Position numbers and translations under genes: made by a program | Source: an uncultured delta proteobacterium | Lineage (GTDB): Bacteria > Myxococcota_A > Polyangia > Polyangiales > Polyangiaceae | Length of the DNA stretch: 64,000 bases | NCBI GenBank assembly: GCA_963696385.1 | Contig: CAVOKF010000007.1 | Coordinates: forward strand, 256,001 to 320,000 | Reading direction: 5' to 3' | In this document: positions 14,524 to 45,998 of the stretch, in pieces | How positions within the stretch are numbered: the first letter of the stretch is position 1 | Layout of the letters: each line of letters opens with the position of its first letter | Notes under the pieces: model-generated | The model's database searches: none | What the model was told of the DNA's origin: nothing | The model's input: the letters and a program-made list of their open reading frames with translations, nothing else

Positions 14524-14574
14524 CACGCACCCGTCCAGGTTCTCTGGTGGGATCGCCTTTAACGGGGCGCTGCA

Positions 14575-15046: not shown

Positions 15047-15054
15047 CGGGGCAC

Positions 15055-15420: not shown

Positions 15421-15470
15421 GGTATGGCCCCCCCGTTTCGACGTTTCTGGGTGAGAGCGCCGACGTCACC

Positions 15471-16777: not shown

Positions 16778-17865
16778 CGCAACTCGTCCGGGGGCGACCT
16801 CCGGGTGCCCCCGATCCGCCGCCACACCTCGTGGGCGACCGCGTCGAGGGGAACGACCGCGTCTGCAAGGCCTGCGTTTGCGATGTAACCCGGCATGCCC
16901 CACACGACGGACGTGGCCTCGTCCTGGACGACGACCTGCCCGCCGGCTTCGCGCACGTGCTCGCAGCCTCGAAGCCCGTCCTGCCCCATCCCCGTGAGCA
17001 CGACCGCCAATGTGTTCGCACCGTAGCACTCGACCGCCGAGCGAAAGAGCACGTCGACCGCCGGCCGGCACGAGTTCTCGTGCGGAGTTTTGAGCAGCTT
17101 GAGGCGTCGTGCAAAGCCTTCGCGATACACCACCATGTGGTAGTCGCCCGGCGCTATCCACAGATCGCCCGGCGCCAAGGTCTCACCGCCGCGGGCCTCT
17201 TTCACGCCGAGACTTGTGTGGGCGCGCAAGCGGTCCGCCAGCAGACGCGTGAAGACCGGAGGCATGTGCTGGACGATCACCACGGGGACGCTCGGATTCG
17301 GGGGGAACGACTCGAGCAGGGTCGTCAGCGCTTTCGGGCCGCCGGTGGAACAACCAATCATGAGTACTTCGACATGCGCCGCGGACGAGCGAGGCTTCGT
17401 CGCGACACCGCGCGCAGGCGCCGCGCTAGGCGTCGCGGTCGAGCGAAGCGAGCCGAGCGCAGAGGCTCCGAAGAGGAGAACCTTGCTGAGAAGCTGTTCT
17501 CGCAGCTGATGGCTAGCGGCCGCGATGCTCAATCCGCTGGGCTTCGTGACGTAGTCGCTGGCCCCCAGCGTGAGCGCCGTGAGTGTCGCCGCCGCCGCGC
17601 GCTCCGTGACAGCGCTGAACATGATGACGGGCAGCCGAGGATGCGTCTTGCGGATCGCAGCCAACGTCTCAAGGCCGTCCATCTCCGGCATCTCCACATC
17701 CAGGGTCACGACGTCGGGATTCACCTGTCCGATCTTGGCGAGCGCGATCTTGCCGTTCGCCGCCGTGCCTACGACTTCGCAGCTCGGATCGGAGCCGAGG
17801 ACGTCCGCGACGAGACGGCGAACGACGACGGAGTCGTCGACGATGAGAACGCGGATCTTAGGCAT
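16753..17865 (-). CDS. cheB: Chemotaxis methylesterase CheB (REC + esterase)
   Basis: VLIVDDS, DVEMP; IGCSTGGP, VQHMP, RPAVD, LTGMGQDG, VWGMP. Confidence 0.96.
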   Translation of the reverse strand: MPKIRVLIVDDSVVVRRLVADVLGSDPSCEVVGTAANGKIALAKIGQVNPDVVTLDVEMPEMDGLETLAAIRKTHPRLPVIMFSAVTERAAAATLTALTLGASDYVTKPSGLSIAAASHQLREQLLSKVLLFGASALGSLRSTATPSAAPARGVATKPRSSAAHVEVLMIGCSTGGPKALTTLLESFPPNPSVPVVIVQHMPPVFTRLLADRLRAHTSLGVKEARGGETLAPGDLWIAPGDYHMVVYREGFARRLKLLKTPHENSCRPAVDVLFRSAVECYGANTLAVVLTGMGQDGLRGCEHVREAGGQVVVQDEATSVVWGMPGYIANAGLADAVVPLDAVAHEVWRRIGGTRRSPPDELRWPRTSSW

Positions 17866-18241
17866 GGGTCGGAGTGCCGAGGCCCAGGATCCCGAGCTTG
17901 GCTCGAAGAATTTCCGTGGTAAACGGCTTCATCACGTACTCGTTGGCGCCCGCTTCCAGGGCGCGTGCCATCTGTGCGGCTTCCGCCTCCGTCGTCACCA
18001 TCATCACGCGAACGCCGTCGAACGCATGGTTTTGGCGCACCGCGAGAACGAAGTCGAGGCCGTTCATTCGCGGCATGTTCCAATCGACTAGAGCGAGGTC
18101 CACCGTGCCCAGCTCTTGCAGTCGCTCGAGAGCCTCCACGCCATCGCTGGCCTCGACGAGAGTTCGGAAGCCTTCCGACGCAAGAAACTTTTTCAGGATG
18201 GATCGCATGACCCGCGAGTCGTCGACGACGAGTGCTTTCAC
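17858..18241 (-). CDS. cheY: CheY response regulator
   Basis: GTG start at 18241; KALVVDDS, LVDWNMPRMNG, MVTTE, GANEYVMKPF. Confidence 0.9.
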   Translation of the reverse strand: MKALVVDDSRVMRSILKKFLASEGFRTLVEASDGVEALERLQELGTVDLALVDWNMPRMNGLDFVLAVRQNHAFDGVRVMMVTTEAEAAQMARALEAGANEYVMKPFTTEILRAKLGILGLGTPTHA

Positions 18242-18308
18242 CTCATATCTCCCTTCCGAGGCAAGAAGAACGACTCCCGCCCTCTTTCCGGCCGGAGGTC
18301 CGCGTTGC

Positions 18309-20622
18309 TCACAAATCGGACGACAGCCTTTGCAGGTCCCCGGCCATCCGCGACACCTCGCTCGAAGCCTTCTTGATGTCCTGCACTCCCGCGGAGGTGT
18401 CCTTCGCGGCTTGCGCGACCCCCGTGATGTTCTGTGCAATCTCGGAGCTGCCCTTCGCGGCCTCGGAGACGTTGCGACTGATCTCGTTCGTGGTCGCCGT
18501 CTGTTCTTCGACGGCGCTGGCGATCGTATTCTGAATGTCGTTGATCTGGTTGATGATGCCGCTGATCTGTCCAATGGCGGCGACGGCCCCTCGCGTGTCG
18601 GTCTGAATCGCCTCGATCTTCTGGCTGATGTCCTCGGTGGCCTTGGCCGTCTCCTTGGCGAGCTCCTTGACCTCGTTGGCAACGACCGCAAACCCTTTGC
18701 CCGCCTCGCCGGCCCTCGCGGCCTCAATCGTGGCATTGAGCGCGAGCAGGTTGGTCTGCTGGGCGATGGACGTGATGACCTTGATCACCTTGCCGATTTC
18801 GGCGCTGCTTTCTCCGAGCTTCGCGACGGTGGCGTTCGTGGTCTCCGCGACCTTCACTGCCGAGGTCGCGACGCGGGCTGCGTCGTTGGCGCTCTTGGCA
18901 ATCTCGCGAATGCTCGCGGTCATCTCCTCGGCGCCGGTCGCGACGGTCTGCACGTTCTTGTTCACCTGTTCGGCGGCGGCGGAGACGACGTTTGCCTGCG
19001 CCGACGTCTCCTCGGCGTTGGCCGCCATCGTGCTCGCGAGGGCGTCGAGCTCCGCTCCCGCGGCGCCGAGGGTCGTGGCGTTGCCTGCAATCTCTCGCTG
19101 GACCAGCGCGGCCCGCTCGCGGCGTCGCACGACCTCGGTGACGTCCGTGGCGTACTTGACGACCTTGCAGGGCTTTCCGTTGAGATCGAGGATCGGGTTG
19201 TAGGAGGCCTGAATGGTGACGACCTTGCCGCCTTTGCCGATGCGTTTGTACTCCGCAGCCTGGTACTCGCCGCGGTTCAGCTTCGCCCAGAACTCGCGAT
19301 AGTCGTTGCTCGACCGCGTCGCCTCGTCGACGAACATGCTGTGGTGCCGGCCCTTGATCTCGTCGAGCGAGTAGCCGAGGACTCTCAGGAAGTTGTCGTT
19401 CGCCGTAACGACCGTGCCGTCCAGCTTGAACTCGATCACCGCCTGGGACTTCGAGAATCGCCGCAATCTGTGCGACAAAGTCGGCCGTGGCGACCTTCTG
19501 CGCCGTGATGTCCGTGGCGTACTTGACGACCTTGAACGGCTTGCCCCGCAGATCGAGGATGGGGTTGTAGGACGCCTGGATCCAGACCTCCTTGCCGTTC
19601 TTGCCGATCCGCTTGTACTCCGCCGCCTGATACTCGCCGCGGTTCAGCTTCGCCCAGAACTCCCGGTACTCGTGACTCGATCGCGTGGCCTCGTCGACGA
19701 ACATGCTGTGGTGACGGCCTTGGATTTCGTCGAGCGAGTAGCCAAGCGCCCGGAGAAAGTTCTCATTCGCGCCGATGACCGTGCCGTCCATTTGGAACTC
19801 GATGACCGCCTGTGCCCTCGAGATGGCCGCGACTTGGCCCGCGTGGTCCTCGGTCTGGGTCACAATCTCCCAGGTCAGCATCATCGCGGCCGGCTTGCCC
19901 GTGGCGTCGTTCACCGACGTGACCAGAAGCGACAGACGCTCGGGGCCTAGCTGAACGATCGCGCGGTGCGGAAGGCTCTTCGGGTCGGACAAGATGCGTC
20001 GCTGGTGCGACGGGACCTTGTGGAACACGTCGATGCTGCTACCGATGATCTTCGATACGGGGATCGGGAGGTACTTCTCCAGAACCGATAGCGTGCTGCG
20101 CGACGCAGCGTTCATCTGACGGATGGTGAAATCCAGGTCGCACGTCAAGATGTTCACCGGCACGCTCTCGATCATCTGGGCGAGCTTGACGGCTTCGTCG
20201 CGCGCGCTGCCCCGATGCGTCGCGATCTCCAGGTGAATGCCCACGCCGCGGGACTCCTTTCCAGGGCCGCTCATGGGAGATGCCTGGATGGCGAGGAGCT
20301 CGTTGCCGACCCTCACCTCGACGGAGACCTCTCGACCCTGACGCAGACTGCGTCGCTCTTGCGCGGAGAATGCGTGGACGACGTCGAAAGGCTCTCCCAC
20401 AAGGCTGTCCGCGGCGATCTCGATAGCGTCACCGAGGCGCTCGAGAGCCTGGCGGGCTGCCCGGTTCACGTGGCGAACCGTGAGACTTGCATCGCAGTAC
20501 AATAGGCCCGCAGGCGATCCTTCGAAGAGGGCGTCGAGCGAAGCGTCGGTGTCGGGGCGTGCGGGCCCGGGCGGCACGACGCTGTTGCCATTGATTTTTC
20601 CGCGAGCGGTTTCCTCGTCCAT
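18309..20622 (-). CDS. Cytoplasmic multi-PAS methyl-accepting chemotaxis protein, apparent +1 frameshift at ~19456
   Basis: PAS repeats (IDVFHK..HQR; two QAVIEF..DG...ASYNPI) and MCP hairpin [34 protein letters not shown]; no TM segment seen; two ORFs offset by 1 nt. Confidence 0.88.
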
Positions 20623-20695
20623 AGTATTTTCCGTCCCTGTTGTTTTGTTTCACCCATCACTCGTTTGCGGCCGGCTGCAGCGCCGCCGACACGCT

Positions 20696-21151
20696 TCAAC
20701 CAACCGGACTGGAGGGCGCCGGTTCGGCGACCGCCCCTTCCGTATCCAGGACCAGCATCAGCCGGTCCTTCAACCTGTAGACCCCGGCGACGAGCTCTCG
20801 ACCGCTCGCGGCGAGCGTCTCGGGCAAGCGCCCCCGGCTTGCATCGTCGACCTCAACGACGTCGCCAATCTCGTCGACCAACAGGCTGACGGCGCCGTCG
20901 TCGGTGCGGACGACGACGTTCGTGGGCCACTGACCCGCGGGCCGCGGCGCAAGGCCGAGCCGAGCGCGCATGTCGAGCGCGGTCACAATCTGGCCGCGCA
21001 GGTTGATGAGGCCACTGATGATCGGGGATGCCAGAGGCACGGGCGTCATCTCCTGATACCGAATGACCTCCTGGACTCGCGTAACGTCCACGCCGAAGAA
21101 ACGATCGGCGACGAGAAACGTGCAGAATTGCCGGGTATCGCTCATGGTCAT
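20696..21151 (-). CDS. cheW: Chemotaxis coupling protein CheW
   Basis: QFCTF, VQEVIR, GLINLRGQIV, LLVDEIGDV. Confidence 0.94.
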   Translation of the reverse strand: MTMSDTRQFCTFLVADRFFGVDVTRVQEVIRYQEMTPVPLASPIISGLINLRGQIVTALDMRARLGLAPRPAGQWPTNVVVRTDDGAVSLLVDEIGDVVEVDDASRGRLPETLAASGRELVAGVYRLKDRLMLVLDTEGAVAEPAPSSPVG

Positions 21152-21156
21152 CGCCC

Positions 21157-23409
21157 TCAGGCCGCGTGGGTTCGTTCGAAGAACTCGGGGTCCGTGGCGC
21201 GAATGACTCCGTGAACGTCGAGCAGATCGGTGACCTTTCCTCCGATCACGGCAGACCCGATGACGCCGTGGCTTGCGGCCCGCATCTCTTCGGTAAACGA
21301 CTCCTCGACGATATCGAGGATTCGGTCCACGACGAGTCCGACGCTGCGCCCCAGCTCGGAGTAGACGATGACTTGGAGCGGGACATCGCCGTCGCCCGGG
21401 CCGTGGTCCATCGTGCCGCAAAGATCGATGAGCGGCAGGATGCGCCCCCGGTACTGCATGACATAACGGCCGCTCGATCGCTCGAGGCGCTCGCGCGGAA
21501 ACTCCTCGAGGCGAGCGACCATCGACAACGGAATGGCCATGCGGCCCGCTTCCCGGACGCGAAACAGCAGGACGGCTCGCCTTTTCTCCTCTTTGTGGCC
21601 TTGGTGGCCGGACTCCTTCCGGTCGTCGGCAAGATGGCGATCGCGGACCTCGGAGATGACGTTGGCTCTCTGGGCGATTCCAAGCACGTCCAGGATGAGC
21701 GCCACGCGTCCGTCGCCCATGATGGTCGCGCCAGCGAACACCGAGAGCCCCTTCAACTCCTTGCCCAGCGGCTTGACGACAATTTCCTCGGTATCGCTCA
21801 CGCCGTCGACGACCAGGCCGAACTGGCGATCGTCGGCCTGCAGAACGACAATATTGAGGGCTCCCGAATCCGCGAGATCTTTGTCGGGGAACCCCAGCGT
21901 CCGGTTGAGGAAAACGAGCGGCAGGATGTCGCCGCGAAGACGATACACAGGTGCGCCATGGACGTGCTCGAGGACCGTCCTGGCTTGCTCTCGCTCGAGG
22001 CGCACCAGCTCCAACAGGTTCACTTGCGGGATGGCGAAACGCTCGGTGTCGCTGGTCACGACGAGCGCGGGAATGATGGCCAGCGTGAGCGGAATCTTGA
22101 TCTTGAGCGTCGTGCCCTGACCGGCTTTGCTCTGGACGTCGACGGTGCCGCCGATTTTTTCGACGTTGGTCTTGACCACGTCCATGCCAACGCCCCGACC
22201 GGAGACGCTCGTGACCTTCTCGGCGGTCGAGAGCCCGGCCAAGAATATGAGGTTCAGGCTCTCGCGGTCGCTCATCCGGGCGGCCCGATCCTGCGCAACG
22301 AGCCCGCGCGCGACCGCCTTGTCCCGGATCTTCTCCGGGTCGATCCCCGCGCCATCGTCCGAGATCTCGATGTTGACCTGACCCCCTTCGTGGTAGGCGC
22401 GCAGAAGAAGCTTGCCGTAAGGAGGTTTCCCGCGCGCGATCCGCACCTCGGGAGTCTCGATACCGTGGTCGACGGAATTGCGGACCAAGTGCGTCAGCGG
22501 GTCTTTGATCGCTTCGATGATCGTACGATCGAGATCGGTCTCTTCGCCGATCATGTCGAGTTTGACTTGCTTGCCGCAGGTCACCGCGAGATCGCGAACC
22601 ACGCGCGGGAACTTGTTCCACACGTTGCCGATGGGCTGCATGCGCGTCTTCATCACGCCTTCCTGCAGCTCGGTGGCAATGAGGTTCAAGCGCTGCGAGG
22701 TGCCTACGAACGACGAGTCCTTGCTCTGTCCGGCGAACTGCAGAATCTGATTGCGCGCCAGAACGAGCTCGCCGACGAGGTTCATCAGCTTGTCGAGCAG
22801 CCCGACGTCGACGCGGATGCTCGTGTCCGAAGCGGCGGCGCGCATTTCACGCTGTGCATGCAAGGCCTCCGAGATGGCCGACGCGTTGTGGACGCTGCCT
22901 CGGGAAACGAGGATTTCGCCGATCTTGCGGGGGTCCTGCTTCTGCTGCTCGAGAGCCTCTTCGAGATCCTTCGGTCCGATGACTCCCGCCTCGATCAGGA
23001 TCTCTCCGATGGGCTGCACGCGCACCGCGCCAAAGGACTCGAGTCTCGCACGGAGAGAAGAGTAGTCCTCCGACCCCTCGCTCCGGGTCGACTCGACGCA
23101 TTTCAGAATGCGCCGGACGCCATCGACCATCGCCAAAAGCGTCGAAGTGATCTCCGGCGTCAGTGTCAACTTGCCGTCGCGGATCTTGCTGAGGACACCC
23201 TCGCCCCCGTGAGCGAGGTCCTCCAGCTTGGATAGTCCGAGAAAGCCCGATGTGCCCTTGATCGTGTGAATGGTACGGAAGATGGCCGCGACGCGATCGA
23301 TTGCACCGGGACTGCTTTCGAGCGCGACGAAGTCGCGATCGAGCCGGTCCAGATTCTCGGTGCTCTCCACCAAGAATTCGCGAAAGATCTCTTCGTCGCC
23401 GACCGCCAT
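21157..23409 (-). CDS. cheA: Histidine kinase CheA with two CheW-like domains
   Basis: Hpt IFRTIHTIKG; IRVDVGLLDKLMNLVGELV; HLVRNSVDHGIE; DDGAGID; SGRGVGMDVV; ATG at 23409. Confidence 0.96.
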   Translation of the reverse strand: MAVGDEEIFREFLVESTENLDRLDRDFVALESSPGAIDRVAAIFRTIHTIKGTSGFLGLSKLEDLAHGGEGVLSKIRDGKLTLTPEITSTLLAMVDGVRRILKCVESTRSEGSEDYSSLRARLESFGAVRVQPIGEILIEAGVIGPKDLEEALEQQKQDPRKIGEILVSRGSVHNASAISEALHAQREMRAAASDTSIRVDVGLLDKLMNLVGELVLARNQILQFAGQSKDSSFVGTSQRLNLIATELQEGVMKTRMQPIGNVWNKFPRVVRDLAVTCGKQVKLDMIGEETDLDRTIIEAIKDPLTHLVRNSVDHGIETPEVRIARGKPPYGKLLLRAYHEGGQVNIEISDDGAGIDPEKIRDKAVARGLVAQDRAARMSDRESLNLIFLAGLSTAEKVTSVSGRGVGMDVVKTNVEKIGGTVDVQSKAGQGTTLKIKIPLTLAIIPALVVTSDTERFAIPQVNLLELVRLEREQARTVLEHVHGAPVYRLRGDILPLVFLNRTLGFPDKDLADSGALNIVVLQADDRQFGLVVDGVSDTEEIVVKPLGKELKGLSVFAGATIMGDGRVALILDVLGIAQRANVISEVRDRHLADDRKESGHQGHKEEKRRAVLLFRVREAGRMAIPLSMVARLEEFPRERLERSSGRYVMQYRGRILPLIDLCGTMDHGPGDGDVPLQVIVYSELGRSVGLVVDRILDIVEESFTEEMRAASHGVIGSAVIGGKVTDLLDVHGVIRATDPEFFERTHAA

Positions 23410-33115: not shown

Positions 33116-33229
33116 CGTCGCTGCGCCAGCGTGGGATACGCACCGACGGGTGCGGCGTGGCACCTATCCGGTGGCGGGCCGGCCCGGTAGAGTGGCTTGC
33201 GCGTTCGAATCGATCGATGGTGCACTGTC

Positions 33230-34357
33230 ATGGGTCTTCCGCCGCGGGCCAGGAAACTGAGGTTTCGAGCCTGGCTCGTCCTGCTGCTCGTGGGGTGCGA
33301 GCGCGACGGCGTCGTACTCGGGCTCGTCGACGCCTTTCCGGACGCGGCGACCGCGGGCGAACCGATGGAAGCCTCCGCACTTTCCGACAGCGACGGCGGC
33401 GAGACCAACGACAGTGGCGAGACCAACGACGGCGGCGCCCCCAGCTGCAACGGGGGCACGGCCGGAACGACCGCCTGCGGCGCCGCGGGCGACAACTGCT
33501 GCACGAGCATCGACGTGAGCGCAGGCACGTTCGACCGCGCCTACACGAACGCGGGGAACGGGGCCACCGGGTTGGCGAATCCCGCGACCTTGAGTGAATT
33601 TCGATTGGACAAGTACGACGTGACCGTAGGGCGATTCCGTCTCTTCGTCCGCGCGTGGACGGCGGGATTCACGCCGCCGCCGGCTTCGGGCAAGCACACC
33701 CATCTGAACGACGGAAGGGGTCTCGCCAACGTCGCCGCGGCGGGGATGTTTGAACCGGGATGGGCGGCCGACGACGACGCGAACGTCGCACCGACGACCA
33801 CCAACCTCGGCTGCGATCCGGCCGACGCAACCTGGACCGACGAGCCCGTGGGCAACGAGGATTTGCCCATCACGTGCGCCAACTGGTACGAAGCGTACGC
33901 GTTCTGCATTTGGGACGGCGGCTTTCTCCCGAGCGAGGCCGAATGGGAATATGCGGCCGCCGGGGGAAGCCAGCAGCGCGAATACCCCTGGGGCAGTGCG
34001 GCGCCAGGGACCGCCAGCCAGTACGCCATCTATGGCTGCTATTACCCCAACGGCTCCGGGGCTTGCCAGCCCACGTCCGTCAATATCGCACCCGTGGGAA
34101 CGGCGGCGCTCGGTGCAGGACTCTGGGGCCAACTCGATCTGACCGGCGAGGTCTATCAGTGGACTCTCGACACGTTCGCCGATTACGTGGACCCCTGTAA
34201 GGATTGCGCATCGCTCTCCGCCACACTGCCCGACCGGGTGCGCCGCGGCGGCGCTTTCGGTTACGACGAAACGGCGCTCACGCCGTCGCTCCGGTCCCAC
34301 ATCGCGCCCACGCACCGCGACGGCAACTTTGGCTTTCGCTGCGCCCGGGTGCCCTGA
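33230..34357 (+). CDS. Formylglycine-generating enzyme (SUMF1/FGE-sulfatase) domain lipoprotein
   Basis: LVGC lipobox; FRLDKYDVT, W.EA.AFC.W.G..LPSEAEWEYAA.GG, YPWG, DLTGEVYQW, GFRCAR. Confidence 0.9.
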   Translation: MGLPPRARKLRFRAWLVLLLVGCERDGVVLGLVDAFPDAATAGEPMEASALSDSDGGETNDSGETNDGGAPSCNGGTAGTTACGAAGDNCCTSIDVSAGTFDRAYTNAGNGATGLANPATLSEFRLDKYDVTVGRFRLFVRAWTAGFTPPPASGKHTHLNDGRGLANVAAAGMFEPGWAADDDANVAPTTTNLGCDPADATWTDEPVGNEDLPITCANWYEAYAFCIWDGGFLPSEAEWEYAAAGGSQQREYPWGSAAPGTASQYAIYGCYYPNGSGACQPTSVNIAPVGTAALGAGLWGQLDLTGEVYQWTLDTFADYVDPCKDCASLSATLPDRVRRGGAFGYDETALTPSLRSHIAPTHRDGNFGFRCARVP

Positions 34358-34464
34358 TTCGCTCCGCGTTCCGCGTTCCGCCGGCCCGCAACGGTCGCAA
34401 GGTCGGTCCAAGTCGACACGCCGACCCGCGCGATCGCGCCCTTGAGCCAGGCTAACGTACGGTC

Positions 34465-35316
34465 GTGGATCGGTCGCCTGTCGTCGAATCCCTTCGTCCT
34501 GCCGCGGGTCTCGCCTCTCATGCGCTCGGGGTCGGCCTGAGGGCACCCCACTACACCTACGTCTTCGAACAGGAGCCGGTCGTCGATTACTTCGAAATGA
34601 TCAGCGACAATTTTCTTGGCTCTGCGCGCACGCCGCGACGAATGCTCGAGCGCGTGCGCGCGCGCTACCCGGTCGTGCTTCACGGTGTCGGCTTGAACCT
34701 GCTCGGGCACACCCCGCTCGATGAGAAATATCTCGATGCCCTCTGCCGGCTCGCCGACGATGTCGACGCGCCGTTCGTCACGGACCATCTCTGCTGGACG
34801 GGTGCCCAGGGCGTGACTCATCATGACCTGTTGCCGACGCCGTACGCGCGCGATCTCGTCGAATTCGCGGCCGAGCGCGCGTGCCACGTGCAGCGCCGGC
34901 TAGGTCGTCCGTTCGGGCTCGAGAATCTTTCGAGCTACGTCGCGTTCCGGAGCTCCACGCTCACGGAATGGGATTTCTATTCCGCGGTCGTCCGTGAAGC
35001 CGGCTGCTGGTCGTTACTCGACGTGAACAACATTTACGTCTCCAGCCAGAACCACGGATTCGACCCGGACACCTATCTTGCGGCGGTCGACTTTTCACGC
35101 GTGCTCGAGGTCCATGTCGCCGGGCACACGCGCGAGCCGAGCGGGACGTTGGTCGACACGCACGACCATGGCGTCGCGCAGGCCGTCTGGGCTCTCTACT
35201 CGCGCGCTTGGAAGAGGGGCGGCCCGTTTCCCACGCTCATCGAATGGGACGCGCATATTCCGCCCATGACCGAGGTGTTGACCGAACTCGCGAAGGCGAC
35301 GGAGGCGCGACGATGA
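34465..35316 (+). CDS. DUF692 multinuclear non-heme iron-dependent oxidative enzyme (MNIO)
   Basis: GVGLR.PH, EMISDNF, LHGVGL, TDHLCW, DLLP.PY, LENLSSY, LLDVNNIYV, EVHVAGH, DTHD, LIEWD. Confidence 0.95.
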   Translation: MDRSPVVESLRPAAGLASHALGVGLRAPHYTYVFEQEPVVDYFEMISDNFLGSARTPRRMLERVRARYPVVLHGVGLNLLGHTPLDEKYLDALCRLADDVDAPFVTDHLCWTGAQGVTHHDLLPTPYARDLVEFAAERACHVQRRLGRPFGLENLSSYVAFRSSTLTEWDFYSAVVREAGCWSLLDVNNIYVSSQNHGFDPDTYLAAVDFSRVLEVHVAGHTREPSGTLVDTHDHGVAQAVWALYSRAWKRGGPFPTLIEWDAHIPPMTEVLTELAKATEARR

Positions 35317-36173
35317 CGCGTGAGGCCCCACGCTGGCTTGCCGATTTTCAAGCCCGCTTTGGTGACGTCATTCGCACACCCCTGGACCGGACGGGCGGAA
35401 CGCTCGCCGCGACGACGGCGGCCTACGACCCGGGTATCGTGGTCGATACTCTCGATAGCCCGACGGGCACGGGGGCCGATCGACTTGCGGTGTACAATCG
35501 CCAGTACTGGTTTCGGCTCTTCGACGTCGTTCAGCGCGCATTCCCGTTGACGTCGCGCCTGGTGGGTTATTGGGTATTCAACGACTACGTGGCGCGCTAC
35601 CTTCGCGTGCGGCTGCCGCGCGGCTGGGAACTCGATTGCGTGGCCGACGGGTTCGCCGCGTTTGTCGAGGACACGTTCGAGTGCGAAGACCCGGCCAAGC
35701 GGTGTGCGTGGGTCGAAGCCGCTTGCATCGACGACGCGTGGCGCACCGTCTTTCGGGCCCCCGAGATCCCGCCGTTTCGCCCGTCGGCCACTCACGCAAG
35801 CCGGCTGCTCGACGCCCGCCTCGTGCCCTCTCCGGCATGGAGGATCGTCCGGGAGCATCGTCCCCTTCTGGAGCTTCGCAAACGGCTCCTCCATGATTCG
35901 AGCCAAGATTGCGTCGAGGTGCCCCCGCTTTTGCCACGTGCACGTTGGTGGGCGCTCGTTCGTAGGGACCAGGGCATCTTGCACATTTCGCTCGAGCCTC
36001 GCGAAGCCGAGCTCTTGGTGCTCCTCGGCGAGACATCCGTCCGTGATGCCCTCGCACGAGTCGAGCGTGAGTGCGCACCCGAAGAGCGCGCACTTCTGCC
36101 CGCCCAGGCGCGCGGCTGGCTCGCGCGGAGCGTAGAGCTCGACTTCTGGAGCGGAGTCCGCGGCGACGGCTGA
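35313..36173 (+). CDS. DUF2063-family MNIO partner protein
   Basis: LADFQARF, DRLAVYNRQYWFRL, FP....G...F; ATGA overlap with the DUF692 stop. Confidence 0.85.
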   Translation: MTREAPRWLADFQARFGDVIRTPLDRTGGTLAATTAAYDPGIVVDTLDSPTGTGADRLAVYNRQYWFRLFDVVQRAFPLTSRLVGYWVFNDYVARYLRVRLPRGWELDCVADGFAAFVEDTFECEDPAKRCAWVEAACIDDAWRTVFRAPEIPPFRPSATHASRLLDARLVPSPAWRIVREHRPLLELRKRLLHDSSQDCVEVPPLLPRARWWALVRRDQGILHISLEPREAELLVLLGETSVRDALARVERECAPEERALLPAQARGWLARSVELDFWSGVRGDG

Positions 36174-36178
36174 CCCGC

Positions 36179-36589
36179 TCAGTCGCAGACGACGCAGCTA
36201 TACCCGGCGCAGGTGTTGGTCGCTCGACACGTGTGCTCGCTAAGCGTCTGGGTTTCGAGATCGTACGACATCCCACGGCACGAATTGGACCCGCCGCAGT
36301 GCGGTTGTATCTCCAGGATGCCGCTCACCGCATCGCACTGCGCCATAAACTCGCTTTCCGTCATGTTCGCTACGATCGTCGCCGACGTAACGCTCGGATC
36401 CGGCGACACTCCTGCGTCGCAAGCGATCGCCGGAATCGGCGTGTCGCCGTTCACGCTCGAAGCACCGGAATCGGAGCCTGCGCTGTTCGCGCTGCACCGA
36501 GAAGTCGCGACGCACAGAAGGCCACCGAGCGCCGCCGAAAGCAGCGCATGACTCGCCGGATGGTCAGTTTCGTCGGGCCACCAAGACAT
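36179..36589 (-). CDS. Cys-rich exported peptide/lipoprotein, candidate MNIO substrate
   Basis: Hydrophobic stretch ending in Cys, Ser/Gly linker, core with HCGGSNSCRG and HTCRATNTCAG; convergent with DUF2063 (5-bp gap); start uncertain. Confidence 0.7.
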   Translation of the reverse strand: MSWWPDETDHPASHALLSAALGGLLCVATSRCSANSAGSDSGASSVNGDTPIPAIACDAGVSPDPSVTSATIVANMTESEFMAQCDAVSGILEIQPHCGGSNSCRGMSYDLETQTLSEHTCRATNTCAGYSCVVCD

Positions 36590-36874
36590 GCTTTGGCCAC
36601 CATCCTAGACTCGCCGTATCCACAAATCCATCCTGAGCGCGTTTCGGCGGACACTGCGGGAAACGGCTGGCACCGGCCGCCGACGGGCCCCGGCCGGTGG
36701 CCAAGGCCACGCGCATGACGGACGTCATTTCCCGGCCCCACGCCGTCAGCCGCGCGAGCCATTCCGTTCGTCGGGACATCGCTGGGAGGGGGCCGCCCGG
36801 ACCGCCGGTATGCGGCGCAACCGCAAGCGCCTCCACGGCTCATGGCCAACCGGATCGTCTTCGGTAGACTGGCT

Positions 36875-38338
36875 TCACCGAAAATCTTGGAAACGTTTGA
36901 TATCTAAAATAATCGCGAATTGAATCAGCCAAACCACGGCCAGTGCGATGCGACCGCGAGACGGAAACAGCCGCTGCAGCGTCAGGCTCGCGACCAAACA
37001 AGCGGGCTGGGCCAGGAAAAGCCAGAGGCGCGCCGTCTCGGCTTTCGTGCGCCCGAACCATGCCAGCAACGCAATGGTCGTTGCCAGGGCTATGGCTACC
37101 ATCAGTGCGGTGGGTCGGCGCGAGCGGACCCGATCCTCAAGTCCCAGCACGGCGCCCACCATCAAGAGGACGGCCAGCGGTGCACCGATCCAGATTGCGA
37201 ATTCGAGGACATTCACCCATGCAAAATGCTGGATTTCATCGATTGTTCCCGTCCATCCTTTCCAGGCGACGTGGGCGCGAATCGCTACGTCGTATCGATG
37301 CCGGACATCGTAACCGAACATCGTGCTTGCCGCGGCCCAGCTCGTCCCCACTCCGACCGCTGCCGCGGCGCACATCCGAAGCGACGAAACGAAGATCGAA
37401 CGGCTGCGCATGGGGCGAGCGACAGCGCCCAAGATGATGCACGCGACGACCAGAGGCGTAGCCGCGATCAGACCGAACGAACAGAACGCCGCCAAGTAAC
37501 CGAGAATGCCGGAGAGGAACCCCATTCGAAGGTCGTCCCGCAGCGCGGCCCATGCCCCACAGGCCATGGCCGCGTTCACGAGCAAGGGGAAGAGAACCTG
37601 GTCGGTGTGCATGGTAATCAGTAGGAACGACGGAACCGCGGTCGATAGCGCACATGCCCAGATCGCACGTTCGACATCGGCGATGGCGCGGCCGAGGATG
37701 AACAGCGGGACAAGCGATAGCATCGAGAAGCCCGGCCAGGTGAACGTAGCGAATGTGGCAAACCACTCCAATCGTTCGTCCGGATCGGAAAATGGCAAAA
37801 GCGATCGACCGATGCGCTCTGTCAGCACGTAAAAGAGAAGCGTGCCCGGTGGCTTCGTGCGTTCGAACGGGCCCAATTGCCCACTCGATACGAGAGCCTC
37901 ATAGCGGTGCAGCACGTCGTGCATCGTCACACCGGACGCGGCGGTCCGTGCGAACTCCGAGTGCCCAGCGTGGAGTACGCGATCCCGGATCGCCAACAGT
38001 CCGCGACCTTCGATCAGCGCGAAACCGACGAGCATCCCGAGACCTGCTGCGGCCAGGACGCCGACGCGCCACCAAGGATCCGCCCGGTTGCGCACGACGG
38101 CCGCGAGCACGGCGAGCGCGGACAACGCGAGGACGCACCAGGCGCTCATGGGCCCGATAGGGCGTGCGATCGGTAAGTAAAACCAGCCCTCGATACTCTG
38201 AAACCAAGGCGCGCGTAGCGAGAGCATAAAGGCCTCGCAGGCCCCGGCGCCGCAAATGCCAAAGGCCACAGCCGCGGGACCTGCACGGGTCAACGATGAG
38301 TGCGACACGCCGAGAGGGTACGGCAAAAGCCAGTCCAT
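36875..38338 (-). CDS. Polytopic membrane protein, GT-C glycosyltransferase-like
   Basis: Many TM segments; TKPPG.LL, DQVLFP, ETARLWLF motifs; start uncertain (ORF extends to 38464). Confidence 0.55.
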   Translation of the reverse strand: MDWLLPYPLGVSHSSLTRAGPAAVAFGICGAGACEAFMLSLRAPWFQSIEGWFYLPIARPIGPMSAWCVLALSALAVLAAVVRNRADPWWRVGVLAAAGLGMLVGFALIEGRGLLAIRDRVLHAGHSEFARTAASGVTMHDVLHRYEALVSSGQLGPFERTKPPGTLLFYVLTERIGRSLLPFSDPDERLEWFATFATFTWPGFSMLSLVPLFILGRAIADVERAIWACALSTAVPSFLLITMHTDQVLFPLLVNAAMACGAWAALRDDLRMGFLSGILGYLAAFCSFGLIAATPLVVACIILGAVARPMRSRSIFVSSLRMCAAAAVGVGTSWAAASTMFGYDVRHRYDVAIRAHVAWKGWTGTIDEIQHFAWVNVLEFAIWIGAPLAVLLMVGAVLGLEDRVRSRRPTALMVAIALATTIALLAWFGRTKAETARLWLFLAQPACLVASLTLQRLFPSRGRIALAVVWLIQFAIILDIKRFQDFR

Positions 38339-38510
38339 GCGAGTTGGACGCAGGCCATGACCGTGGGCGCAGCCCTTCGTGGAAAGGGAACGAGCCCACT
38401 CGGCTACCGTGTCGCACGCTACCTGCACGCTCGGCTCCATTTCGGAGTCATGCACGCTCGGCACGTGGCGGAGTCGATCCCGCGGGTGATCCGCGGACGG
38501 CGCGCGTGGA

Positions 38511-40286
38511 TCAAGGATCGGGCGATTCGCTACGCCAACGGATCGAGCGCACGATCATGCCGAGCAACCGGTTATCCGGTTTGCCCTCCAAGACAGCGGG
38601 GCTTGCGGCGTCCGGGTGTTGCAGGCAGAGGACGTTCGCCTCTCGCATCACGCCGTCCGGCACGACGAATCGGTAGACGTCGAACGCCCGCTTTCGAATC
38701 GACAGATGGGCAATCTCCCGATCGTTCATCGATACGATCAGCCTCTGCTCCGGCAATTTTCCAGGGTAGAGATACGCGCCCAGATCCATCTCGAGGATGC
38801 CCGATCGGACTTGCGGCACTCGGAAACGGACCACGGAATCGCCCCGTCCCTTGGCCCAACGAAAGTCCCGCTCTCCGTCCGCCCACCCGGCCCCGAGATA
38901 CGGGTCGGCTTGCGCCGTTCCGAGAGCAAGCCCGTCGGCGGGCATCGGCGGGAATGGCCCCTCGGGCTTCAGGAATGCCGCAGCAAACTGAGGGTGCCGC
39001 CAGCTCCACAGGCGCTCGGGAGCGAGGTCGACGTTGTTGGGGGTCACATTCCAATTGTTGGCGTCCCACGAGAACGCGCCGATGCCGTTCATGACGATGC
39101 TCGCGACGCACAGCAGGGCGGCCACGGCGTCGAGGGCGACATCGGCGGGGCGTCTCCCTCGAAACAGGCTGCGGCGCGAAGCGTCGACGGCGAGGACGCC
39201 CAGAAGCAGAAACCAAGGCACCAGACTGGTCGTCAGGCGTGCCCCGTAGGAATGACCCCCCCACCAATGCCCGAACCCCGCGAGCATGAAAATGTGGCCA
39301 CCGATGACAAATGCGGCCAGTGCGGCCAGGGCACGAAAGCGGACGTGACGCCAGCAACGGATGAGGGTGAGCCCGATCGCGACAACGGCCGGCACGTAAA
39401 CGAACAAGCCGCGGCTAGGGCTGATGAGATTCCCGATCAGAGCTCCGCGCGGACCGGGAAAATGCAAGCGGCCGGTGGCAAAATAAGCTGGAACAAGCGT
39501 GTGGAAATGAGACCAAGAATAATAGAAAAATACCGACAACCAGAAGCCAAGAACGGCCACGTACGTCCAAATGGACTTCCGATCGATGCGAACGAGGTAG
39601 AGAATCGTGCCGACGAGGACGAGCGAGTTGGTCGGCCGCACCAGGTACGCGAGCGACTGCAGCGTCGCCAAAAGCGGCACGTGAAGAGACGTCGACTTCA
39701 CCCGAGAGCGCAAAAGCAGCAAGACGGCCAGGCCGACGAGCACGATGCCCCACGTATCGGACCACATCGAACGGGAGGCCGTGCTGAAGACCTGAGTGCC
39801 AAAGGTCGACACGCACGCGGCCACGAGGCTCCAGCCGGCGGGCAAAAGCAGCCGACTGGTGGCATACGCGAGCGCGGCGAATGCGGCCATGAGAAGCCCG
39901 GCCAACTTCCGATCCAAATCGAGCTCGCTCGCCGAATCGTACGATCCGTCCGGCGCAACGACGGACACCCCGCGAAAGTGCATCGCCGCGACAAACGGAA
40001 CGGAGAGCACCGAGCTGGCCGGCGGAAAGAAGTAATAGTCATGTCCGTTGGCATGTTCGATTCGGTAGTCGTGTTCGGGCAGCCCGTAGCGGTCCAGGGC
40101 GAAATCCCCGTGGCGAATCAAATTTTCCGCCAGAAGCATCGTGTAGCGCGAGTCCCCTGCCTGCTGGACGGGGGCGCAACGAAGCACGGAGAGGGTCAGA
40201 GCAAAAATCAGGGCCGCAAAAAAAACGTCTCGGCGCAGGGGCCCATTTCGGTTCACCGTGGGGCTCGAGTCCGTGGAGATCGCCAT
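38511..40286 (-). CDS. Polytopic membrane protein, GT-C glycosyltransferase-like, with a C-terminal beta domain
   Basis: GDSRY loop, YYFFP, RPTN, LISPSRGLFVYVP, WWGGHSYGARL; C-terminal GW...E..FRW...D.R.LG domain. Confidence 0.65.
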   Translation of the reverse strand: MAISTDSSPTVNRNGPLRRDVFFAALIFALTLSVLRCAPVQQAGDSRYTMLLAENLIRHGDFALDRYGLPEHDYRIEHANGHDYYFFPPASSVLSVPFVAAMHFRGVSVVAPDGSYDSASELDLDRKLAGLLMAAFAALAYATSRLLLPAGWSLVAACVSTFGTQVFSTASRSMWSDTWGIVLVGLAVLLLLRSRVKSTSLHVPLLATLQSLAYLVRPTNSLVLVGTILYLVRIDRKSIWTYVAVLGFWLSVFFYYSWSHFHTLVPAYFATGRLHFPGPRGALIGNLISPSRGLFVYVPAVVAIGLTLIRCWRHVRFRALAALAAFVIGGHIFMLAGFGHWWGGHSYGARLTTSLVPWFLLLGVLAVDASRRSLFRGRRPADVALDAVAALLCVASIVMNGIGAFSWDANNWNVTPNNVDLAPERLWSWRHPQFAAAFLKPEGPFPPMPADGLALGTAQADPYLGAGWADGERDFRWAKGRGDSVVRFRVPQVRSGILEMDLGAYLYPGKLPEQRLIVSMNDREIAHLSIRKRAFDVYRFVVPDGVMREANVLCLQHPDAASPAVLEGKPDNRLLGMIVRSIRWRSESPDP

Positions 40287-40472
40287 GGGACGGCGCCTAC
40301 GATCGTCCTCGGAGACGGCGAAAGCAAACCGAGTGGAGACACGGGCGCTGTACGCCGGCACCCTCCGTAAATAATGGAACGGGACTTGGCGCGCCGATGG
40401 ACGTTTCGTCGATACGGAAGAGCGCGATGACGCAGAGCGCGACGACAGGTCCGTAACTCACGGACGGCGCTT

Positions 40473-42640: not shown

Positions 42641-44566
42641 TTAGAATCGGGCGACCCAGCCGAACGTCGCGCCGCCCGCCGTGGGAGCGATCGTCGGCTG
42701 CAAATGCAGCATCCCGGGGTCCCGCTCCCAGACCGTCAAGAGCCGTTGAAGGGGCGTTTCGACCCAATAGGTGGCCGCGATGACGGCCGCGCCCAGCAGC
42801 ACTCCGGTGCCGCCGAACAGGCGGCCGTCGAGTCGCGCGTTGGGGCTCGTGGCCGTCGCCTCGTTGTAGACCCAGCCCGAGGCCGATCCCAGCATGACCA
42901 GGGCGCCGATTCCGCGCGTGATCCAGAGCCGTCGCGCTTCGCGCACAGAAAGCTCGTGGAACCGCTCCTCGGCCACGGCAAACGCCCGCGCGTAGTCCAT
43001 TCCCGTTCCCAGCGCGGCGCGGTAGTCGCGTGCCGCGATCTCGCCCCCCCAGGGTTCCAACAAGTCGTAGAGGCCCGCCCCGAGATACAGCGCGCCGACG
43101 CCAGCGGTCACTGCGCCCCAAACGTTGGCCGACGACCGCGTAAACCCCGGCAGCCTGTCTCCGAAGGACAGCTCCGAGCCCCCGGCGACGCCGAGGACGG
43201 CCCCTGCGCCCAGAAAGACCAGGCCCGAGAGCCTCCGTTGGCCGCGCTCCGCGCTCTCGATCTGACCGAGCAAGAGATCCATCCGCTCGGCGTCTTCCTG
43301 CGACACACCGTAAACAGGAGGTGGCGCGGCGGTCGCTTCCGCCACGTACGAGGCGACGGCACGCGGGCCGAACGGGCGGGTGAAGAGCGTCTGGAAGATC
43401 TCCGCCGGTCCTCGGATGGCTCCGCGCGCGCGGATTGGTTGGAGCGACGCGAGCGTCAGCTCCGTCGCCGCCTCGGGAACGGCGAAGACCTGCAGGGCCG
43501 ATCCGCCGCCGGACGCGGCGCGCTCGACGACTGCGCCGTCGGTCCACTCATCCGGAAGCGTCAGGACGAGTGGAAGCCCCGCTTCCTCGTTGGCGTCGAG
43601 AAGGGGCATGGCGTCTTTGTCGAGCCACCGAACGCGCATCGGCGCGGCGTCGGAGAGACGGAACGTCCGCGCTCCGGTGCGGCCGCGGGCGGCGAGGATC
43701 GGTTGATCGTCGTGACCGCCCGGTCCCCGCGAGAACACGTGCGGACGCATGTTGGGGTTCCGAACGTCCGCGGTCGCGGTGGCGACGAATGCCGCGAGCT
43801 CCAGGTAGCTTACGACGCCGTCGCCGTTCGCGTCGGCGGCGCCCAGCAAGCCGGACCGTACGACGTGGCTGAAGACCCCCGACTGGATCTCGGACCACTC
43901 GAACGAAACCCCCTCGGCGCTCGTCGAGAGGAACACACCCACGTTCGGGAGTCGAGCCGCGAGCGACCGCGCCGCGTCTTCGGGCGTGGCGTAGTAACGG
44001 CCGCCCGGCCGTCGTTCGCCGAGCATGAAGAACGAGTTGCAGCTGTCCAAAATGACGTGCCCTCGTGAGAACGGAATCGCGCGGAGCCATTGCTCCAGAT
44101 CCGCAGACGTGAAGCGCGCATCGGCCAGTTCGATGAAGCCCATGCCTTCATCGGCGTCGCCGTGACCGGCAAACACGAAGTACACGTCGGTCTCACTGCC
44201 GGCGTTGGCGGCGGCCCGAACGCGCTCCGCCAGCTCGCGTCCGACGCGCAGCAGCTCGGCACGCGTGGGGGCCACGGCCCACGCATGCGCTTCGGGGAAA
44301 AGCCGCGCGGTGTCGTCGTCGAAGTCGGCCAGCAGCGTGACATTCTGCGGGGCGACCGTTCGGAAAATGGCGGAACATTTCGCCGCATCGTCGTCTGCGT
44401 AGTGCAGATCGGGGCGCCGATGGCCCAGGCTGCGGTTGTTGCCGATGACGACCGCGAACGCCTCGTGGCGTGCCGGCGCGTCCGCGCGGCTCGGGATCGG
44501 CGTCAGCAGAGCCGCGAGGGCGGCCAGAGCGGCGAGAAGAGAGCCCAGCAGTCGCCGACCGTTCAT
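42641..44566 (-). CDS. Exported caspase-family (peptidase C14) protein with C-terminal membrane segments
   Basis: Signal peptide; AVVIGNN, LHYADDDA, FAGHG (His), ILDSC (Cys), GAADANGDGVVS. Confidence 0.9.
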   Translation of the reverse strand: MNGRRLLGSLLAALAALAALLTPIPSRADAPARHEAFAVVIGNNRSLGHRRPDLHYADDDAAKCSAIFRTVAPQNVTLLADFDDDTARLFPEAHAWAVAPTRAELLRVGRELAERVRAAANAGSETDVYFVFAGHGDADEGMGFIELADARFTSADLEQWLRAIPFSRGHVILDSCNSFFMLGERRPGGRYYATPEDAARSLAARLPNVGVFLSTSAEGVSFEWSEIQSGVFSHVVRSGLLGAADANGDGVVSYLELAAFVATATADVRNPNMRPHVFSRGPGGHDDQPILAARGRTGARTFRLSDAAPMRVRWLDKDAMPLLDANEEAGLPLVLTLPDEWTDGAVVERAASGGGSALQVFAVPEAATELTLASLQPIRARGAIRGPAEIFQTLFTRPFGPRAVASYVAEATAAPPPVYGVSQEDAERMDLLLGQIESAERGQRRLSGLVFLGAGAVLGVAGGSELSFGDRLPGFTRSSANVWGAVTAGVGALYLGAGLYDLLEPWGGEIAARDYRAALGTGMDYARAFAVAEERFHELSVREARRLWITRGIGALVMLGSASGWVYNEATATSPNARLDGRLFGGTGVLLGAAVIAATYWVETPLQRLLTVWERDPGMLHLQPTIAPTAGGATFGWVARF

Positions 44567-45414
44567 GGTGCGGCTCCGTCGGCGTGGCGCACCTCGACCA
44601 TCGTCTCGCGCACTTCTGCCCCGGGAAGCCGGCGGGCCATGCGAGCCGCACTGAGCTCGGTGCCCTCGAGCGACTCGACGTCGGACACATGCGCGGGGGC
44701 CGGCGTGATCACGGCGACGATGCGCAGGGGGCCTGGGCTTACGTCCTCGAGGACAACCGTCGTGTCGAGGACCCGCTCACCGAGCGAAGGCGGCAGCGTC
44801 GTCGAAGCGGGGTTGTCCTCGGAACGCGTGAACCTCGGCGAAATCCAGTGGATGGCGCCCCGCGCGTCGACCGCGAAAAGCAGAAGGAAGGCCGGGATCT
44901 CCCCCAGGTTGCGGAAGCCGGCGGTGAGGGGCGTCGTGTCGTCGAACGTCGCCCCGGCCCCCAGAGGACGAAGGTTTCCCCGGGCCGTATAGGGCTGCAC
45001 GCCGACATCGCGTCCGATCGTGGCTTGAACCGGCCCCCCGCGAGGCTGCCAGGTTTCCGTCGTCCGCGGAACGCGCAGTCCCACGTAAGCCAGGAGGACG
45101 ACTCCGCAAGCGGCCACCGAACCTGCCGCGACGAACCGTCCGAAGGGCCCCGGCCGCGCTCGGTTTTCCGTCGTCGTCGCCCTGTGACGCTCCAGACGAT
45201 CCACGCGTTCCATCACCGCACGGATGTGCGCTTGAACATCGAAGTCCTGGACCGTGGCCGCTTTGATGTCGCCCAGGGCGGTTCGCAGCGCCCGGTCCTG
45301 CTCCCGGCAACGGGGGCACATGGCGACATGCGCCTCGACGCGCCGGGTCTCTTCCAACGAAAGCGAGCTATCGACAAAGCGCACGAATTGGTCGCGGGTC
45401 GGACAGGGCATCAT
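44563..45414 (-). CDS. Zinc-finger (zf-HC2) anti-sigma factor with TM helix and extracytoplasmic domain
   Basis: HVAMCPRC (HxxxCxxC), one TM, WQPRG; ATGA overlaps with both neighbours. Confidence 0.85.
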   Translation of the reverse strand: MMPCPTRDQFVRFVDSSLSLEETRRVEAHVAMCPRCREQDRALRTALGDIKAATVQDFDVQAHIRAVMERVDRLERHRATTTENRARPGPFGRFVAAGSVAACGVVLLAYVGLRVPRTTETWQPRGGPVQATIGRDVGVQPYTARGNLRPLGAGATFDDTTPLTAGFRNLGEIPAFLLLFAVDARGAIHWISPRFTRSEDNPASTTLPPSLGERVLDTTVVLEDVSPGPLRIVAVITPAPAHVSDVESLEGTELSAARMARRLPGAEVRETMVEVRHADGAAP

Positions 45415-45998
45415 CGATGTTCCTCCAAAAGATCCCGAAGCAAACGCAGCCCGTGGTGAACCCGCGAGCGCAGCGTCGACTCGCCGATGCGCAAGATGGC
45501 GGCCATCTCGTCGTATCGGAGCTCCTGCCCGTACCGCAGGACCAACGCCTCGCGCATCCTCTCGGGAAGCCGAGAGAGCGCGTGGTGGACGCGGTGCCTT
45601 CTCTCCTCCACGAGGAGCTGGTCGATCTGTTTGGCAGTGGGCGGTTCGGCGGCCTCCGATGCGGCCCGCATCCGGTGCCGCTGCACCACGCCACGCATCC
45701 TCGAATGGTTGCGACAGCGATTGCGCGCCGCCGTAATCAGCCAGACGATGAACTTGCCCTCGGCCCGATACTGCGATCGCTGCGCCCAGATCGTGACCCA
45801 GGTCTCTTGCGCCATTTCGGCGCCCCACTCGCCGTCGCCGACGAACCTGGAGCAGACTTGCACCAGGCGCTCGGCGTGGCGTTCGACGAGCACGGCGAAC
45901 GCTTCGCGCACTCCGGCCTGCGCGAGCGTCATCAGTTCGTCATCGTCTCGATCGGGCAAGGGGCCACGCTCGAGCGGCACCAGATGCGGAGAAGACAT
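45411..45998 (-). CDS. ECF RNA polymerase sigma factor
   Basis: DDELM..AQAG..EAF..LVERH, QETW, F..WL...ARNRCRN, L.RLPE.MRE.L.LRY..EL.Y.E.A, T..SR. Confidence 0.92.
   Translation of the reverse strand: MSSPHLVPLERGPLPDRDDDELMTLAQAGVREAFAVLVERHAERLVQVCSRFVGDGEWGAEMAQETWVTIWAQRSQYRAEGKFIVWLITAARNRCRNHSRMRGVVQRHRMRAASEAAEPPTAKQIDQLLVEERRHRVHHALSRLPERMREALVLRYGQELRYDEMAAILRIGESTLRSRVHHGLRLLRDLLEEHR

Follow-up and report, generated by a model that had tools for sequence, protein, structure and literature searches.

The cassette, its MNIO gene and the partner gene

The stretch of DNA analysed here, hereafter the window, is the 64,000-nucleotide segment at positions 256,001 to 320,000 of contig CAVOKF010000007.1 (assembly GCA_963696385.1), from an uncultured member of the Polyangiaceae. 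At window positions 34465 to 36589 it carries a gene for an enzyme of the MNIO family (DUF692), a gene for its DUF2063 partner and, facing them on the opposite strand, a gene for a small Cys-rich protein, which we regard as the candidate precursor of a RiPP, a peptide made on ribosomes and modified after translation. The features of this cassette are the following.

34465..35316, + strand: BufB-like maturase of the MNIO (DUF692) family; 283 residues, GTG start (PF05114 and NF050167 scores)
35313..36173, + strand: BufC-like DUF2063 partner; 286 residues, ATGA-coupled to the MNIO gene (PF09836)
36179..36589, - strand: predicted precursor lipoprotein gene; 136 residues (homologue search, alignment)
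36494..36556, - strand: predicted signal peptide, ASxALLxAALGGLL up to lipobox Cys32; T-S-R-C here, non-canonical
36182..36421, - strand: predicted folded core, residues 57-136, with eight conserved Cys (alignment and model)
36278..36298, - strand: first CxxxNxC loop, C98-C104, candidate MNIO targets; aligns with the CysI/CysII loop of BufA2
36209..36229, - strand: second CxxxNxC loop, C121-C127, candidate MNIO targets; aligns with the CysIV/CysV loop of BufA2
36174..36178, no strand: gap of 5 bp between the facing stop codons, with no room for an intrinsic terminator
34453..34458, + strand: candidate -10 element TAACGT of a putative leaderless-type promoter, 6 nt ahead of the MNIO start
36602..36607, - strand: putative -10 element TAGGAT, 12 nt ahead of the precursor ATG

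The first-pass annotation of this DNA had described a DUF692 gene with the expected His/Asp/Glu motifs, translationally coupled to DUF2063 and followed 5 bp further on by an opposite-strand reading frame of about 136 residues, and all of this holds. The MNIO scores 312.6 bits on PF05114 (cut-off 25), its ligand motifs are intact when aligned to the solved MNIOs 3bww and 8hci, and H73, D107, H108, E153, D186, N189, H217, D231, H233 and E260 are found in 62-63 of 63 aligned MNIOs. The DUF2063 frame follows directly through the ATGA overlap, and the precursor contains HCGGSNSCRG, HTCRATNTCAG and the terminal YSCVVCD just as claimed. Among the MNIO models, BufB fits the window enzyme best: on the BufB equivalog NF050167 it reaches 308.7 bits and misses the cut-off of 310 by 1.3 bits (HvfB, 223.6 with a cut-off of 360; ApyH, 81.5; MbnB, 52.9 with 325; ChrH, 33.5 with 600). 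The partner scores 47 bits on PF09836 (cut-off 27.2) and gives a weak HvfC match (E 0.0065); no solved structure was matched by its profile.

An eight-cysteine candidate precursor family distantly related to BufA2

The precursor, to which no Pfam family was assigned and which found no match among plasmids, occurs once in the window genome, alongside two other MNIOs, and belongs to a family in which 200 of 304 candidates match at E<=1e-3 (160 representatives after 50% clustering). Its nearest named relatives are metagenome-assembled genomes of Polyangiaceae. Across an alignment of 120 members the layout is the same: the signal ASxALLxAALGGLL, Cys32, a variable Ser/Gly/Thr/Asp tether and an eight-Cys core. 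Seven core Cys had been counted in the first-pass annotation; the conserved core has eight, with C57 kept in 118 of 119 aligned members. The window protein contains ten Cys in all (26, 32, 57, 85, 98, 104, 121, 127, 132, 135), of which C98, C121, C127 and C132 are present in 120/120 members, C85 and C135 in 119 and C104 in 118. Both CxxxNxC loops and both of their Asn residues are invariant, as in BufA2; D110 is likewise invariant and H119 is found in 116/120.

The proposal that the peptide is exported is supported by motif: a conserved hydrophobic segment and the Cys are present in every one of the 131 scored short members, and the lipobox Cys in 131/131 short and 51/51 long forms with a scored signal motif. 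C57 (or its counterpart) and C135 occur together, 109 of 131 sequences having both, 12 neither, and 9 and 1 a single one of them, with the caveat that relatives are not independent; this suggests a disulfide. A structure model of the short form (pLDDT 68.6, with confident helix and strands and weaker loops) places C85 in a helix (78-87) and C132 in the last of five strands (67-72, 91-95, 105-110, 115-119, 129-134), with both CxxxNxC motifs in loops. Judging by conservation and model, C57-C135 and C85-C132 are probably structural disulfides. The model found no Foldseek match at E<=0.001 (best VIA Z 3.6), and an Atlas search gave no usable match for the core and only generic cytochromes for the fusion form described below. 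Prediction of the three-chain complex gave no answer (score 0.00, partner fold uncertain) and was used neither way. Multiplied versions also occur: seven lipoproteins carry two or three tandem Cys domains without a cytochrome (P0130, P0205, P0221, P0233, P0249, P0262, P0263), and at seven loci two to three precursor genes with differing tether lengths face one MNIO pair (L010, L017, L020, L022, L023, L056, L065).

The first-pass annotation had noted a resemblance to bufferin precursors, and this proves genuine, if distant. The BufA2 model NF050166 is matched at E<=0.1 by 47 of 60 family members (best E 1e-5), and when the core was compared by hhalign with 11 natural BufA2-type proteins from genomes (9 score above the cut-off), the two loops aligned with a probability of 91% and an E of 1e-6. 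The precursor is, by sequence, a distant BufA2 relative that lies far below the family cut-off. By eye, C132 sits where BufA2 has an aromatic residue, and the CxxxGG helix comes first in the window family and last in BufA2. The changed order of helix and loops is probably a circular permutation, for which direct tests on a natural tandem and on blocks gave a weak signal (P 0.0015, probability 16%). The six- or twelve-Cys CysI-CysVI pattern of BufA2 is only partly recovered: the four loop Cys align, CysIII is absent and the helix Cys is N-terminal.

These departures bear on what the MNIO might do. Perceivably, it could modify the precursor by another chemistry, for example a C127-x4-C132 cross-link, or in the service of Ag, Hg or Zn; the enzyme belongs to an MNIO clade of its own and scores slightly below the BufB cut-off, the Cys spacing is altered and D110 and H119 are conserved, MNIO chemistry is varied, and mercury clusters contain some of the bufferin fusions (PMC12452194, PMC13056109). 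However, BufB is by far the closest model, both loops with their Asn are kept as in BufA2, and the recurrent metal-related neighbours of the relatives are copper genes, and we consider such an alternative quite unlikely. C127-x4-C132 does spell CxxxxC, but gene order and neighbours differ from those of the CxxxxC family as described (PMC12452194; cluster X in PMC13056109), which has a signal peptide, lies upstream of the MNIO and neighbours DoxX and Lactamase_B_2.

Linkage, gene layouts and the cytochrome c branch

Linkage of the peptide's homologues to DUF692/DUF2063 loci, on which the first-pass annotation had staked its proposal, is what we found. Among 201 genomes of the order, the precursor family is present in 44 and a close MNIO (E<=1e-90) in 39; 38 genomes have both and 156 neither, so that the precursor is carried by 38/39 genomes with a close MNIO and by 6/162 others. 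In the single MNIO-only genome the contig breaks off within DUF2063. Six genomes have the precursor alone: a more distant MNIO adjoins it in three, a frameshifted MNIO lies 4 kb off in one, a facing DUF2063 stands at the contig end in another, and the sixth is G142 (see below). A frameshifted MNIO at L080:105-891 may reflect an assembly error, as may one contig on which the whole cassette occurs twice, inverted and with one MNIO split (L064:5167-7055 and 14514-16399).

Layouts were compared at 57 genome loci, each having a full MNIO no more than 4.5 kb from a precursor. Two duplicate loci had been dropped, 11 further precursor loci without a full MNIO in view lie outside this set, six locus pairs are >93% alike, and the searches were seeded with close relatives, which favours the convergent clade. 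At 45 of the 57 a short precursor is convergent with the MNIO, at two it is divergent, and longer forms fused to a cytochrome lie in the canonical (precursor-first) position at eight and downstream at two. A metagenome scan with the fusion alignment, confined to the best 80 of 123 loci with near-duplicates merged, gave 18 convergent, 7 divergent, 9 downstream and 2 canonical short forms plus 8 without a system gene in view, and 16 canonical fusions plus 7 without a system gene in view; six additional genomes added five canonical fusions and one downstream. We had entertained the idea that short forms are always convergent, and the metagenome loci led us to reject it. In MNIO trees the convergent loci form one clade (0.94 in FastTree, 99 rows; SH-aLRT 77, 49 rows) nested among fusion loci, and short forms also stand at several further points. 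Of the four layouts that the family shows, the convergent one is a single inherited rearrangement. The tail-to-tail subfamily first proposed is supported with this qualification: the arrangement does recur, but as a single clade whose relatives show three others. Since adjacency is kept through all four layouts, passive synteny alone is argued against, and the partnership of MNIO and precursor outlasts repeated rearrangement.

The convergent loci have no other conserved neighbour gene in a scan of 140 flanking proteins from about 40 of them (cut to 330 residues, one pass at E<=1e-10, such that weak matches could escape). The same scan bears out the earlier remark that DoxX is not adjacent, and it found no MbnP, DUF1775, YtkA or DUF3570 either; one protein has a sigma-70 region 2. 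We accordingly view the cassette as a portable, self-contained three-gene unit of the class Polyangia. The FGE-sulfatase-domain gene upstream (window 33197-34357, 107 bp before the MNIO) was considered as a component because Buf1-cytochrome-FGE fusions exist, and rejected because the genome has 39 copies and such a domain occurs once among the 140 flanking proteins of relatives.

The facing 3' ends deserve attention. The stop-to-stop gap is <=29 bp at 41 of 44 loci, and at 20 of the 44 the genes overlap, leaving no room for a terminator. Overlaps of this kind could lock genes together mechanically, and the precursor might then be a lipoprotein with disulfides or metal-thiolate sites that goes unmodified and is simply carried along beside the MNIO pair, the actual substrate being encoded elsewhere; the same genome does have a BufA2-like lipoprotein gene that stands alone, none of its called neighbours being an MNIO (G000:C7:862535-862681). 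The opposite strand, the putative separate promoter and the even number of core Cys would suit such a view. It is nonetheless very improbable in our judgement, given that linkage survives all four layouts and extends to the fusion forms, that the MNIO has no other conserved gene nearby and that the domain itself is BufA2-related. A 22-bp 3' overlap recurs at L066:5790-5815 and ten other loci; at L066 the conserved Tyr codon of the precursor has the DUF2063 stop codon on its antisense side, an arrangement that may hold the two genes together.

Many relatives run from the last Cys strand straight into a class I cytochrome c. Pfam cytochrome matches were obtained for 19/19 long proteins tested, CxxCH is invariant and the Met of NMP is kept in at least 90% of 58 fusion sequences, and the fusion model (pLDDT 82.6, pTM 0.73) shows a class I cytochrome fold (best Z 8.4, root-mean-square deviation 2.1 over 71 residues). 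The branch is sizeable, with 33 matches in one search and 51 fusion proteins with a scored signal, and extends to the cultured Cystobacter fuscus, whose fusion WP_095990895.1 probably adjoins the MNIO WP_095990896.1, as the accessions are consecutive. Of 31 listed fusion loci 26 were scanned for neighbours, and 11 of the 26 lie beside MbnP (5), DUF1775 (2) or YtkA-like (4) genes; these 11 include two pairs from one genome each and two loci without an MNIO in view. One of the MbnP proteins scored 198 bits on its NCBIfam model (cut-off 140), and one MbnP locus also has a di-heme peroxidase. These genes are the sole copper evidence independent of enzyme homology, and they belong to the relatives, not to the window. 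RegB/RegA (ActS/ActR)-like two-component genes, below family cut-offs, adjoin several loci, and DUF3570 genes with DUF2271 stand beside others (L130, L133, L142, L145 and L167 for the two kinds together). In some proteins (P0235, P0237, P0252; L082-L084) a MopE-like metal-binding motif and an EF-hand-like segment lie before or within the Cys domain, followed by the cytochrome c.

The fusions raise the question of whether the modified precursor serves copper delivery or redox work rather than buffering. The copper of the ancestral protein would then have been wired to the fused His/Met cytochrome c, for copper reduction or oxidation or for the metallation of cuproenzymes, and the short form would be a trimmed carrier with a separate redox partner. 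The heme domain placed right behind the last Cys strand points this way, as do the basal position of the fusion loci and their neighbours (MbnP, DUF1775, YtkA-like, DUF3570, RegB/RegA-like), which read as uptake and assembly rather than efflux. YtkA functions in copper uptake and assembly. Copper binding has been described for YcnI (10.1101/2021.06.11.448128). Against this, the window genome has the short form only and no MbnP match, 15 of the 26 scanned fusion loci have no MbnP, DUF1775 or YtkA-like neighbour, and the clade behind the tree argument scores well in FastTree and less so by SH-aLRT. We therefore hold a delivery or redox role to be unlikely for the window protein. That the fusion came first, with loss of heme and inversion to follow, is a suggestion from the sequence trees, because the trees are rooted on two distant paralogues found in the window genome. 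A fuller version of this history strikes us as doubtful: the family would have originated as a lipoprotein with heme c, whose MNIO-made thiooxazole copper site, electronically wired to the cytochrome, was a redox cofactor and not a sponge, and the window cassette would be a derived, heme-less descendant, constitutively and separately transcribed, whose antisense 3' overlap may couple precursor and maturase levels. Were it true, RiPP modification would extend to a protein-derived redox cofactor, in a copper reductase or oxidase or in a metallochaperone.

A candidate copper-binding lipoprotein

The reading we prefer is that the MNIO/DUF2063 pair makes a bufferin-like, copper-binding thiooxazole lipoprotein, to which we assign a probability of roughly 60%. 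It is favoured by the co-occurrence of the genes, their adjacency in four layouts, the BufB-like score, the loop alignment, the precedent of Buf2 and the copper context of the relatives. Two facing promoters would give one message for MNIO and DUF2063 and a separate one for the precursor. In the cytoplasm the pair would, by analogy with BufB and BufA2, oxidise precursor Cys by four electrons to 5-thiooxazoles, the likeliest targets being the four loop residues C98, C104, C121 and C127, with an expected change of -16 Da. Sec export would follow, then lipidation at C32 in most members and closure of the two disulfides, and the product would bind and buffer copper outside a membrane at the end of its Ser/Gly/Thr/Asp tether. 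In Buf2 each of the four central Cys becomes 4 Da lighter and one disulfide forms, and bufferins protect against copper (bioRxiv 2024.03.18.585515).

The putative promoters were examined across related loci. TAnnnT elements mark leaderless messages in other phyla. Of 37 related MNIO genes, 29 have such an element 5-9 nt ahead of an in-frame start (mean 0.5 and maximum 3 in 500 shuffles). Among 39 precursor genes, 29 have one 5-14 nt ahead of the start (mean 0.9, maximum 5 in 500 shuffles), an interval picked after inspection of the data; within 5-9 nt the precursor count is 12 of 39. Genome-wide the excess is weaker, 141 against 74 of 2117 long open reading frames. These elements, on both outer genes, are suggestive of two separate housekeeping-type promoters. 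A scan for strict sigma-70 promoters and terminators returned nothing relevant, and three metatranscriptomes of the same study yielded only short pieces from other organisms.

Several observations weigh against the preferred reading. First, the relation to known bufferins has gaps: the window precursor reaches 17.6 bits on NF050166, whose cut-off is 60, BufA2 CysIII falls by eye on the invariant D110 with no Cys counterpart, and since CysI and CysVI of Buf2 are unmodified (bioRxiv 2024.03.18.585515), the count of four targets carries over while their exact identity does not. Second, the lipobox Cys is conserved (111 of 112 aligned members), as the first-pass annotation had supposed, but the window copy has Arg at -1, where two of 131 short members have it (Ala stands there in 93, Gly in 26, Ser in 7 and Thr in 3). 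The closest relative shares this Arg, so it is no sequencing slip, and the family is a better candidate for lipidation than the window copy. Third, the genomes behind the linkage counts are related and not independent, the convergent loci are a single clade, and the complete genome G142 has the precursor without an MNIO within 12 kb. Fourth, the immediate context says little of copper: the 140 flanking proteins include one SCO1/SenC, one CusB-like/RND pair and one lysyl-oxidase domain, and the promoters look housekeeping-type, whereas copper induction of the Caulobacter bufferin uses a promoter of the extracytoplasmic function (ECF) type, SigF (bioRxiv 2024.03.18.585515). Finally, the same genome holds a canonical bufferin locus (L001:6130-11254; G000:C5, ~986-991 kb), with genes in bufA-B-C order, an ECF sigma factor, a divergent DoxX, an HvfC-like partner and a BufB at 344.8 bits, over the cut-off. 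Its precursor is a lipoprotein with two CxxxNxCxGxGGC repeats (NF050166, 41.9 bits), preceded by a Shine-Dalgarno-like AGGA and a possible ECF promoter. The genome's third MNIO is more distant (G000:C3:617255-618013).

Compared with bufferin-2 (bufA2B2C2 of Caulobacter vibrioides), the window system shares a BufB-like MNIO with DUF2063, a Cys-rich precursor that is exported, folds and bears two CxxxNxC loops, tandem precursors or duplicated domains, some predicted lipoproteins (~16% of Buf2 precursors; PMC12452194) and the dispensability of DoxX, which the C. vibrioides buf2 locus lacks (bioRxiv 2024.03.18.585515). It differs in having eight core Cys rather than six, with C132, C57 and C135 new, in putative TAnnnT promoters rather than SigF control, and in a precursor that lies downstream on the opposite strand rather than first in bufABC. 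According to PMC12452194 that order is strict, and DUF2063-type partners accompany signal-peptide precursors; the one-strand bufA-bufB-bufC order, not found in the window, is seen in cytochrome fusions and two short metagenome loci. Because the BufA2 profile, the Cys pattern and the gene order all failed, we did not file the cassette as a bufferin member. The Buf1|Cytochrom_C and Buf1|Cytochrom_C|FGE-sulfatase proteins of PMC12452194 likewise join a bufferin-type domain to a cytochrome c, but theirs is a DUF2282 domain in few instances, whereas the fusions of the window family are BufA2-related and a major branch; the only Buf2 fusions listed there are with MerC. The RiPP-lipoproteins DybA (chryseobasin type) and NedA (oxazolin type) are also MNIO substrates with a signal-peptidase-II lipobox, modified in the cytoplasm and lipidated afterwards (PMC13056109); the window precursor has neither CPxCGxG nor EGKCG, and its MNIO is not ChrH-like. 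Methanobactin (MbnA/B/C) shares the MNIO fold, the metal ligands, the copper theme and, in some relatives, MbnP neighbours, but here the low MbnB score, a folded exported protein in place of a short secreted peptide, and DUF2063 in place of MbnC set the systems apart.

The cassette is apparently an undescribed, conserved variant on the bufferin theme. The survey in PMC12452194 took only genes preceding an MNIO and, of signal-peptide precursors, those of <200 residues, limits that pass over the short form where it is convergent and the heme fusions for their length; in its genome table 8 of 11 Polyangia rows list MNIOs, and no row gives a precursor of the bufferin or oxazolin kind. Every open reading frame of 50-160 residues near an MNIO entered the lipoprotein screen of PMC13056109, which could include the window family. 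We did not find the family in the text of either paper, supplements aside, and a literature search whose coverage excluded most subscription papers found no paper on DUF692 in Polyangiaceae or on an MNIO with a c-type cytochrome, nor, judged by titles and the openings of abstracts, any on the family itself. The lipid anchor of MNIO products (PMC13056109) and the Buf1-cytochrome fusion are already published and are not new; the surprise lies in the rearranged scaffold and the heme-fused branch with its cultured host, more than in a reversed gene or a lipid anchor. The family thus offers a candidate substrate for a myxobacterial MNIO clade that surveys were built to miss, and a natural test of how BufB-type enzymes choose Cys in a rearranged scaffold. 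Redox work by MNIO-made copper sites is directly testable in the C. fuscus protein.

Two other observations concern the genome and the surroundings of the cassette. ARAGORN predicts a 96-nt tRNA with anticodon TTA ('tRNA-Stop') at G000:C5:931663-931758, which could stem from a sequencing error, be an artefact or represent a variant tRNA-Sec. In the window, two multi-pass membrane protein genes without a family match (529 and 616 residues) lie at 36875-40361; they look glycosyltransferase-like. From their translations we presume groES/groEL at 2825-4871, a chemotaxis cluster at 15058-23409 and an ECF sigma/anti-sigma/caspase-like trio at 42641-45998.

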